Part shown: piece after piece, positions 18,384 to 19,894 of the stretch | Position numbering within the stretch: position 1 is the stretch's first letter | How the letters are laid out: every line of letters begins with the position of its first letter | Assembly: GCA_019057815.1 (NCBI GenBank) | Contig: JAHLWR010000027.1 | Span: forward strand, 1 to 47,106 | Length of the DNA stretch: 47,106 bases | Source: Candidatus Heimdallarchaeota archaeon | Lineage (GTDB): Archaea; Asgardarchaeota; Heimdallarchaeia; Heimdallarchaeales; Heimdallarchaeaceae | Direction: 5' to 3' | Program-made: the position numbers and the translations under genes | Notes under the pieces: model-generated | Databases searched by the model: none | Seen by the model: only the letters and a program-made list of their open reading frames with translations | Told to the model about the DNA's origin: nothing

Positions 18384-19894
18384 AGGAGGTGATCCACTTG
18401 CGATACATAAGTTTCTACTCATGTATTTCCGCAGGTTCCCCTACGGATACCTTGTTACGACTTTTGCATCGTCGCGAAGCCCAATTTCGAATAAGCTGTA
18501 ACAGCCCAACCTCAACCGAACCTCACTTCGTTGCAACGACGGGCGGTGTGTACAAAAAGCGGGGACGTATTCTCCGCGCGATGATGACACGCGGATACTA
18601 GGCGCTCCATGTTCACGAGGTCGGTTACAGACCTCGATCCCTACTGCGAGCAGGTTTGGGGGTCCGCTTCCCCTTTCGGGGTCGCCTCTCATTGTCCTAC
18701 TCATTGTGATGCGTGTGTGGCCCTGGGGATTAGGAGCATACTGACCTGCCGTGGCCCGCCCTTTCATCTATCTTCATCGATAGCGATCTCCCTATTGTCC
18801 TCAGCCAAGCCGAAGCTTGCTCTTAGCAAATAGGGACGCGGGTCTCGCTCGTTTACTCACTTAAGAGCACACCTCACGGCACGAGCTTGAGACGGCCATG
18901 CACTACCTCTCTGTTTTATTCGAGTAAGGTCTTCAGCCTGACTCACATTTAACAGTCGCCCCAGGTGAGTTTCCTCGCGTTGAGTCGAATTAAACCACAC
19001 ATCCCGTGCCTTGTGGCGCTTTCCCGTCAATTCATTTAAGTTTCAGCCTTGCGACCGTACTCCCCAGGCGGAGGATTTAATAGTTTCCCTTTGGCACTGA
19101 TCAGGCCCTTAGCCATAACCAACACCTAATCCTCATCGTTTACGGCCAGGACTACAGGGGTCTCTAATCCCTTTCGCTCCCCTGGCTTTCATCCATCACC
19201 GTCGAAGATATTCCAGTGAACCGCCTTCGCCACTGTGGGTCCTGCGAGAATCAACGCATTTCACCGCTTCTCTCGTAGTACCGTTCACCTCTCCTATTTC
19301 CTAGGTTAGTGGTATCCTTGACAGCCTACAAGTTAAGCTTGCAGATTTGATCAGGGACCTACTTACCCGGCTACGGATGCTTTAAGCCCAATAATCGTCC
19401 TGAGCACTCGCAGAGCTGGTTTTACCGCGGCGGCTGGCACCAGCCTTGCCCTCTGCTTGCTGTTAGAGCTTTAAACACTCCATCACAGCTAGGGGGTAAC
19501 CCTAGCACTTGGGTTCGCGGCCTCACGCTTTCGCGCATTGGGCACGATTCCCGACTGCTGCACACCGTAGTGCTAGGACCAGTGTCTAAGTGTCCTTCTC
19601 GGGGCTCCTACTCTCATAGCCCCTACCGATCAATGCCTAAGTGATCCATTACATCACTTACTAGCTAATCGGCCGCGGCCTCATCCTGTGGCGATCCGAA
19701 GACCATTAAATATTGGCCCTTTCCAGGAGTCCATACTTATCGGGGATTAGTCTCAGTTTCCCGAGGTTATTCCCGTCCACAGGGCAGATTGGCGACGTGT
19801 TACTGAGCCTTTCGCGATGCCTCCGAAGAGACATTCCACTTGCATGTCTTTAGCAAACCCAATAGCACTCAGGTCCGGCATGATCAACCGGCTT
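18384..19894 (-). rRNA. rrs: Archaeal 16S rRNA, containing a 31-nt intron
   Basis: 5' CCGGTTGATCATGCCGG; GTGCCAGCCGCCGCGGTAA; GTACACACCGCCCGTC; AAGTCGTAACAAGG; 3' GGATCACCTCCT. Confidence 0.99.
18397..18427 (-). other. 31-nt BHB mini-intron between helix 45 and the anti-SD
   Basis: CC-UGCG-GA|A-[10-bp hairpin with AGAA loop]-CGCA-AG|U-GG. Splicing restores CCUGCGGAUGGAUCACCUCCU. Confidence 0.9.

Follow-up and report, generated by a model that had tools for sequence, protein, structure and literature searches.

A candidate 31-nucleotide bulge-helix-bulge mini-intron in helix 45 of the 16S rRNA gene of a Heimdallarchaeaceae-like Asgard archaeon

The DNA analysed here (the window) is a stretch of 47,106 nucleotides (nt), positions 1 to 47,106 of contig JAHLWR010000027.1 of Candidatus Heimdallarchaeota archaeon, whose minus strand carries the 16S rRNA gene (18384..19894, intron included), the sole copy in the genome. 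In this gene, 31 nt (18397..18427, minus strand) interrupt the 3' strand of helix 45 (h45), a little upstream of the anti-Shine-Dalgarno (anti-SD) sequence. Very probably, to judge from the fold and from comparison with relatives, this insert, hereafter i1527, is an optional mini-intron without an open reading frame (ORF), spliced by EndA and RtcB by way of a motif of bulge-helix-bulge (BHB) form at a new 16S locus. The kind of element is already known, so far as its sequence allows it to be classified, and what appears to be new is the locus and the lineage. The assignment rests on the fold, the BHB scan, homologues with compensatory changes and the precise absence of the insert in a sister genome.

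The insert and its predicted splicing fold

The single 16S rRNA match in the genome (RF01959, the Rfam archaeal small-subunit (SSU) model; 1306 bits) runs on the minus strand from 19894 down to 18421, and the final positions of the model (GGAUCACCUCCU) cannot be aligned because of the insert. Direct reading of the tail places 31 additional bases between ...GGGGAACCUGCGG and UGGAUCACCUCCU and the true 3' end, ...CCUCCU, at 18384, so that the predicted mature gene ends in ...GGAUCACCUCCU. The insert follows Escherichia coli position A1527, between the pairs 1508-1527 and 1507-1528 and 13 nt short of the mature 3' end; the numbering is anchored on the universal landmarks m3U1498, A1518/A1519 and the anti-SD at 1535-1540. 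Helix 45 (E. coli 1506-1529), located at 18395..18449 on the minus strand by alignment to the Rfam consensus and by folding energies, is thus split by the intron, and its GGAA loop, carrying the target adenosines of KsgA, lies at 18436-18439 of the same strand according to the same alignment.

Read as RNA, the 5' exon ends in ...CC-UGCG-GA at 18428 and the intron runs from 18427 to 18397 as an A, a 24-nt hairpin, CGCA and AG. All parts of a BHB motif are present on the minus strand, namely (i) the exon strand of the central 4-bp helix, UGCG (18430..18433; E. coli 1522-1525), which is at the same time part of the 3' strand of h45, (ii) a 5' bulge GAA (18427..18429) with a cut predicted after its second nucleotide, between 18428 and 18427, from the geometry and the canonical EndA rule, (iii) the intron hairpin or inner helix h' (18403..18426), of 10 bp with the loop AGAA, (iv) the intron strand of the central helix, CGCA (18399..18402), and (v) a 3' bulge AGU (18396..18398) with a cut predicted from fold and scan between 18397 and 18396, the 3' exon opening with U18396 (E. 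coli 1528). This 3' exon, UGGAUCACCUCCU (18384..18396 by direct reading), is 13 nt long and contains the anti-SD CCUCCU (18384-18389).

The strict hBHBh' shape is the unconstrained minimum free energy (MFE) fold of a 91-nt piece (-27.8 kcal/mol, z = -3.55, none of 200 shuffles as stable; ViennaRNA). The BHB scan likewise returned a BHB fold, with a central helix of four Watson-Crick pairs out of four, two outer C-G pairs and 10 inner pairs. The 31-nt BHB with its UGCG/CGCA helix, GAA and AGU bulges and 10-bp hairpin had already been described in a sequence-only reading of this DNA, and all of these elements proved correct. According to the same reading, the canonical 3' end is regenerated once the RNA is cut behind the second nucleotide of the bulge. 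Indeed, canonical cuts made in silico yield ...CCUGCGGA joined to UGGAUCACCUCCU, which restores the universal ...CCUGCGGAUGGAUCACCUCCU, and the predicted spliced product is the 3' end found in intron-less relatives and in the Rfam consensus.

With fewer than 50 nt, no ORF and a single hairpin within a 16S gene, the insert has the traits of the small hairpin-type (HP) introns, whereas 31 nt are too short to encode a LAGLIDADG or any other homing endonuclease. The motif by itself proves little, because loose BHB-like motifs are frequent by chance: our own BHB scan found 176 of them under minimal criteria in an RNA of ~2 kb, and 25% of shuffles contained a short-span motif whose inner helix had 6 pairs or more. 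The weight therefore rests on the exact restoration of the universal sequence and on the relatives.

Inserts at the same and at neighbouring sites in Asgard 16S genes

A survey of Asgard 16S 3' ends, as the earlier reading had proposed, found i1527 in relatives and revealed further sites. Among the 31 genomes of the family, two of them closed, a same-site insert is present in six, and two metagenome contigs also carry one, whereas the insert is absent from the other 25 genomes. The homologues comprise eight distinct sequences, in which four pairs of the hairpin are changed on both sides; 98.4% of the pair cells are standard, against 15-54% when the partners are slid, which shows compensatory change. 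The loop is hypervariable, while CGCA (8/8 variants) and the flanking exons are invariant. In the sister genome (G001), the 16S body is 99.2% identical and the last 152 nt are 98.7% identical, with a homologous trailer, yet exactly these 31 nt are absent. The 16S tree of the relatives resolves sister pairs only; these relatives carry differing sites, two sites or none. The genome with two sites (G008) has two h45 mini-introns together, after 1513 and after 1527, in the last ~110 nt of its 16S gene. Within the whole study genome, a blastn-short search for further copies of the 31 nt returned just the live copy and one in a spare 16S tail (R2, described below), and the insert is therefore no dispersed repeat.

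Inserts were then sought across 185,579 prokaryotic species, each represented by a single genome, as any sequence of 19-49 nt between the anchors GTCGTAACAAGG and GGATCACCTCC. This anchor scan returned 15 stretches, ten of them from Asgard metagenome-assembled genomes (MAGs) of the Heimdall group, Hermodarchaeum, Freyarchaeota and one further archaeon. The non-Asgard remainder consisted of assembly duplications or chimeras, except for one Fimbriimonadales MAG with replaced h45 loops, and no h45 insert was returned from non-Asgard archaea. The inserts at 1512, 1513, 1519 and 1531 each have their own exon-complementary 4-mer in the BHB register: the central helix pairs GCCC with GGGU after 1512, UCCG with CGGA or CGGU after 1513 (five genomes), GGGG with CCCU after 1519 in Hermodarchaeum, and GAUG with CAUC after 1531. 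Standard cuts restore the canonical sequence at these sites, except for the Freyarchaeota insert at 1519, which fits the BHB loosely and not strictly, with three of four central-helix pairs. For the insert after 1531, 400 genomes of the phylum were scanned and 25 proved to carry it; 23 of these 25 fall in three families (89 genomes) that include the Thor-like family f31, and one each in families f5 and f28. Nearly all of the matches listed for this site belong to f31. At least five sites with the sequence features of BHB mini-introns (1512, 1513, 1519, 1527 and 1531) thus lie within the last ~35 nt of Asgard 16S genes.

These comparisons bear on a different reading of the 31 nt, namely that of an expansion segment kept in the mature 16S rRNA as a small hairpin branching from the base of h45. 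On an isolated fragment, a fold combining the upper 8 bp of h45 with the hairpin of the insert is indeed thermodynamically favoured and spares the GGAA loop as well as the greater part of h45. However, an expansion segment would leave unexplained both the 4-mer complementary to exon positions 1522-1525 with its exact 3-nt bulges and the invariance of this 4-mer despite a varying hairpin and loop, and there would be no reason for the BHB rule to be obeyed at five sites. Inserts at 1513 and 1519 would split the 5' strand of h45 or its methylated loop, which could hardly be tolerated, and yet they follow the same BHB logic. Nor is the insert widespread and placed at a recognised variable site, as one would expect of an expansion segment: it is missing in the sister despite the 99.2% identity of the 16S body and in most of the family, and among the 185,579 species h45 inserts are confined to Asgard archaea and one bacterial MAG. 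We consider retention in the mature rRNA quite unlikely.

Two bacterial-type cases were observed apart from these. In the Fimbriimonadales MAG (STL-ARM1), a single stretch of 8 kb bears three 16S 3' ends; the h45 of one is canonical, and in the other two the h45 loop is swapped for a hairpin 22-30 nt longer, without the GGAA loop. In addition, four related metagenome contigs have 16S tails of bacterial type in which the 5' strand of h45 holds an insert of 24 nt.

Competition with helix 45 and the splicing machinery

The central BHB helix occupies positions 1522-1525 of h45, and, as the sequence-only reading had noted, this helix and the full pairing of h45 are mutually exclusive. Several points weigh against the proposed splicing. 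An isolated 68-nt piece favours the upper 8 bp of h45 together with the intron hairpin over the BHB (-18.5 versus -14.2 kcal/mol), and on this piece the pair probability of the central helix is only ~0.03. Both strands of h45 are transcribed before the CGCA of the intron, so that the BHB is in kinetic competition with h45. The BHB is the MFE fold only in the longer context, with the 5' strand of h45 paired to the anti-SD and ACG, and the outer helix has just 2 bp. Finally, the invariance of CGCA over eight related sequences would, taken alone, be modest evidence.

Since the BHB is the MFE fold only when the 5' strand of h45 is occupied, splicing probably depends on h45 being kept open at an early stage of assembly. 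Such an early-open h45 is plausible by analogy with Haloferax volcanii, in which KsgA methylation of h45 is late (PMC10351888). With regard to the possible partner, the 5' strand of h45, CGUAGGGG (18437-18445), has its complement in the anti-SD together with the opening bases of the trailer, CCUCCUACG (18376-18392), and the two are paired in the 91-nt MFE fold; this pairing would hide the anti-SD and leave the 3' strand of h45 available to the BHB. The trailer bases of this region are similar in intron-less relatives.

The earlier reading had gone further and inferred that splicing acts as a gate for the folding of h45, for methylation by KsgA and for the placement of the anti-SD. The intron would then be a regulatory gate, retained in order to time h45 folding, dimethylation by KsgA and the moment at which the anti-SD becomes exposed. 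That the central helix and the h45 pairs at 1522-1525 cannot coexist agrees with this proposal, and so does the order of events in Haloferax volcanii, where KsgA acts late, after the circular pre-16S has been opened, so that an early EndA step would precede it (PMC10351888). The proposal did not find support, because the intron is optional among near-identical species (missing in 25/31 family genomes, the sister included), because different relatives have different sites or none, and because the target loop of KsgA is able to form despite the intron: according to the 68-nt energies, the upper 8 bp of h45 and the GGAA loop can fold around it. Frequent gain and loss is, moreover, the pattern of a passenger. 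If anything, early folding of h45 would hinder splicing, rather than splicing gating h45. A gating role therefore seems highly unlikely, and the intron is best viewed as a tolerated, come-and-go passenger rather than as a regulator.

The enzymes that splicing as a passenger intron would require are encoded in the genome, which is 95% complete. Archaeal EndA cuts BHB motifs. The host EndA to which the earlier reading appealed is present as two paralogues of ~200 aa, each with an N-terminal and a catalytic domain (PF01974/PF02778). To judge from their domain content, they probably form a two-subunit alpha/beta enzyme, an architecture reported for most Asgard genomes (bioRxiv 10.64898/2026.10.13.758758). 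RtcB (PF01139, 458 bits) and a KsgA/Dim1 homologue are also encoded. The RtcB match lies in a frame of 1015 aa (contig C38, 129362-132214) and is split, Pfam positions 1-50 and 49-426 being ~1.5 kb apart, which suggests an intein.

The following mechanism can be proposed. In the precursor, the exon UGCG (1522-1525) would pair with the intron CGCA, flanked by two 3-nt bulges, the 10-bp hairpin and the short outer helix. EndA, probably as a two-subunit alpha/beta enzyme, would cut after the second nucleotide of each bulge, and RtcB would ligate A1527 to U1528, joining ...CCUGCGGA to UGGAUCACC to give ...CCUGCGGAUGGAUCACCUCCU. The excised 31-mer would probably be released as a circle. The possibility that EndA removes the insert but that the ends are not rejoined was also considered; the 13-nt tail would then be lost or held non-covalently, leaving a 16S rRNA without a covalent anti-SD. 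The bulges do predict EndA cuts, after which only 2 bp of h45 and the tail would hold the 3' fragment, and bacterial intervening sequences are known to be removed without ligation. On the other hand, RtcB, which as a rule joins EndA products, is encoded in the genome, and not one intron-bearing variant shows a change in the 3' exon, which argues for its use. Cutting without rejoining is most improbable in our estimation.

Splicing with ligation would have further substrates in this cell. Introns were detected in 11 of the 27 tRNAs found by ARAGORN (4-50 nt, mostly 17-50 nt). In the 23S rRNA gene, an insert of ~350 nt (368 nt versus 18 in the Rfam model; window ~23345-23690) adjoins the GGGAUAACAG region of the peptidyl-transferase centre and is probably a second, larger rRNA intron. 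On account of these tRNA introns and this 23S insert, BHB splicing would clearly seem to be a busy pathway in the host cell. A long leader-trailer stem is also present around the pre-16S. Its homologue in a related genome (G004) has a clear BHB; in the study genome the homologous central helix has only two of four pairs, and a second leader-trailer BHB candidate (cuts near 20049 and 18320) conflicts with an 11-bp inner helix.

Known introns, spare 16S tails and the gene neighbourhood

The 16S genes of Thermoproteales, Desulfurococcales and Aigarchaeota are known to harbour a class of BHB introns that are small (<50 nt) and form hairpins (PMC4496867). Like these HP introns (Jay and Inskeep 2015, PMC4496867), i1527 is shorter than 50 nt, lacks an ORF and consists of one hairpin and a strand of 4 nt that is complementary to the exon and completes a BHB; like them, it sits in a universally conserved 16S stretch, is patchy among close relatives and lies at a place that interrupts, or is beyond, primer sites. 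It differs from them (i) in its locus, as the catalogued archaeal 16S introns lie at 374 to 1391 (PMC4496867) and i1527 lies in h45, outside the described positions as the earlier reading had supposed, a difference of site and not of kind, (ii) in its host, an Asgard archaeon of the Heimdall group instead of thermophilic TACK archaea, and (iii) in being one of several sites crowded into the last ~35 nt, beside the anti-SD and near the boundary of spare tails. No report of an intron in h45, of one beside the anti-SD or of any Asgard 16S intron was found in the open full-text literature, where an unseen report is possible. A study of Asgard rRNA expansion segments (PMC7594248) makes no mention of h45; for Lokiarchaeota it reports no expansions of the SSU.

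Other BHB-dependent systems resemble i1527 in part. The introns of pre-tRNAs, processed by EndA and RtcB, share the identical hBHBh' geometry and predicted cuts, the size of i1527 falls within the range of the tRNA introns of this genome, and the same enzymes are presumed to act; the host of i1527 is, however, 16S rRNA, and its exon strand doubles as a strand of a mature rRNA helix, so that the motif competes with h45. The BHBs of the pre-16S and pre-23S processing stems, which belong to the circular pre-rRNA pathway (PMC7038931, PMC10351888), are part of the same precursor, are presumed substrates of EndA as well, and both steps would precede the late methylation of h45; these BHBs are formed by leader and trailer and the whole rRNA is excised, whereas i1527 is internal and only 31 nt would be removed. 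Homing-endonuclease introns of rRNA genes, and ORF-less introns mobilised in trans (I-PogI, as relayed in PMC4496867), are likewise patchy and occupy conserved rRNA sites, possibly with a nuclease encoded elsewhere. In contrast, i1527 has no ORF, no LAGLIDADG gene was identified nearby, and a giant ORF beside the 16S gene has no recognisable nuclease domain.

If the assignment is correct, the known range of archaeal rRNA introns would come to include h45 and the anti-SD tail, the most conserved and latest-maturing part of the SSU, and would reach the closest archaeal relatives of eukaryotes. As stated in the earlier reading and confirmed from the E. coli numbering, the site is 3' of the 1492R primer, because this primer ends near 1510; amplicon surveys are thus blind to it. 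Covariance models truncate the gene there (at 18421 with Rfam), and automated annotation will misplace the 16S 3' end and drop the anti-SD in such genomes. A natural, optional intron that competes with h45 could serve as a test case for the timing of EndA relative to h45 folding, KsgA and Nob1. The relevance is mainly for specialists in archaeal RNA processing and ribosome biogenesis, and would be greater if the link to cassettes described below were true.

The 16 kb behind the 16S gene are split into blocks by spare copies of the 16S tail and trailer at 2024-2177, 3670-4015 and 9376-9401. The spare copy R2 (3670..4015, minus strand; blastn, 97.4% over 347 nt) comprises the 16S end from within h44, the trailer and the tail of the neighbouring giant ORF, and holds an identical copy of the intron (31/31) at 3882-3912. 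The spare copy R3 (2024..2177, minus strand) comprises 16S tail and trailer; its homology begins at GGAU followed by GGAUCACC, a form that lacks the intron, at a point 2-3 nt upstream of where the intron is inserted. The spare tails of G001, G012 and G022 all start at G1526/A1527, 1-2 nt from the intron site. In the Thor-like family f31, a BHB-type mini-intron of 30-32 nt after A1531 is present not only in live 16S ends but also in spare tails, as many as four to a genome, which begin near position 1507.

The giant ORF (13389..18266, plus strand; 1625 aa) converges on the 16S end, from which it is 118 nt away. Pfam families were not detected in it even at an E-value of 1. At the loci examined, its homologues adjoin 16S genes only where an h45 intron is present: they stand beside 16S in four distinct cases, one with the 1527 intron and three with the 1513 intron, and are absent beside all six intron-less 16S genes and beside four intron bearers. 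The link between the giant ORF and the intron is an association only.

Taken together, these observations suggest a link between tail-swapping cassettes and tail introns. The cluster of mini-introns in Asgard 16S tails might then be a mark left by traffic, or conflict, with mobile gene cassettes whose attachment or replacement site would be the 16S tail, a reading that we put forward tentatively and rate as doubtful. Under it, the 16S tail would be a recombination site, and the intron would either travel as the first element of an exchangeable tail module or break the DNA inverted repeat of h45 and so spoil the target of a recombinase or nuclease of the element, with RNA splicing repairing the rRNA. 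With spare tails and swappable cassettes in the neighbourhood, RNA splicing might let the end of an essential gene act as a recombination hot spot. Spare tails bounding cassettes in the study genome and in G001, G012 and G022, with intron-less starts near the intron site, are in favour of such traffic, as are the second identical intron in R2, the giant-ORF homologues confined to intron-bearing 16S genes (four cases, against none of six intron-less genes) and the frequency of the 1531 intron in the spare tails of the Thor-like family. Against it stand the four intron-bearing loci that lack the giant ORF, the lack of a Pfam match in this ORF and the strength of the association (p ~0.07, a Fisher-type estimate from counts of genomes that are related). 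The 1513 intron would, furthermore, lie outside a module starting at 1526, and the Thor-like tails start near 1507. In addition, the flanks of i1527 are of the sister type. Arrival of the intron on a foreign 16S end was tried as an explanation and rejected for the study genome: the 16S body, the last 152 nt and the trailer are all nearest to those of the intron-less sister, and the trailer is 71.6% identical to that of the sister versus 27-57% to those of the other intron bearers examined, so that the intron was not brought in by a foreign tail. This possible role of cassettes as the agents behind the tail introns is accordingly one to which we assign a low probability.

The 31 nt were also considered as the captured end of an element. 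This was rejected, as the sequences upstream of the spare tails have no convincing likeness to the intron.

With regard to the wider rRNA locus, the 16S gene (minus strand) and the 23S gene (plus strand, 20801-24175 according to Rfam) are arranged head to head with a spacer of ~0.9 kb (window 18384-24175), so that no co-transcription is possible. The Rfam scan predicted no tRNA or 5S gene between them. Finally, the equivalent of E. coli position 1408 (window ~18530-18545) is a G, within GUCG, in all 19 of the checked 16S genes from relatives that match the anchor, whereas the Rfam archaeal consensus has an A. A G at this position is the eukaryotic state.

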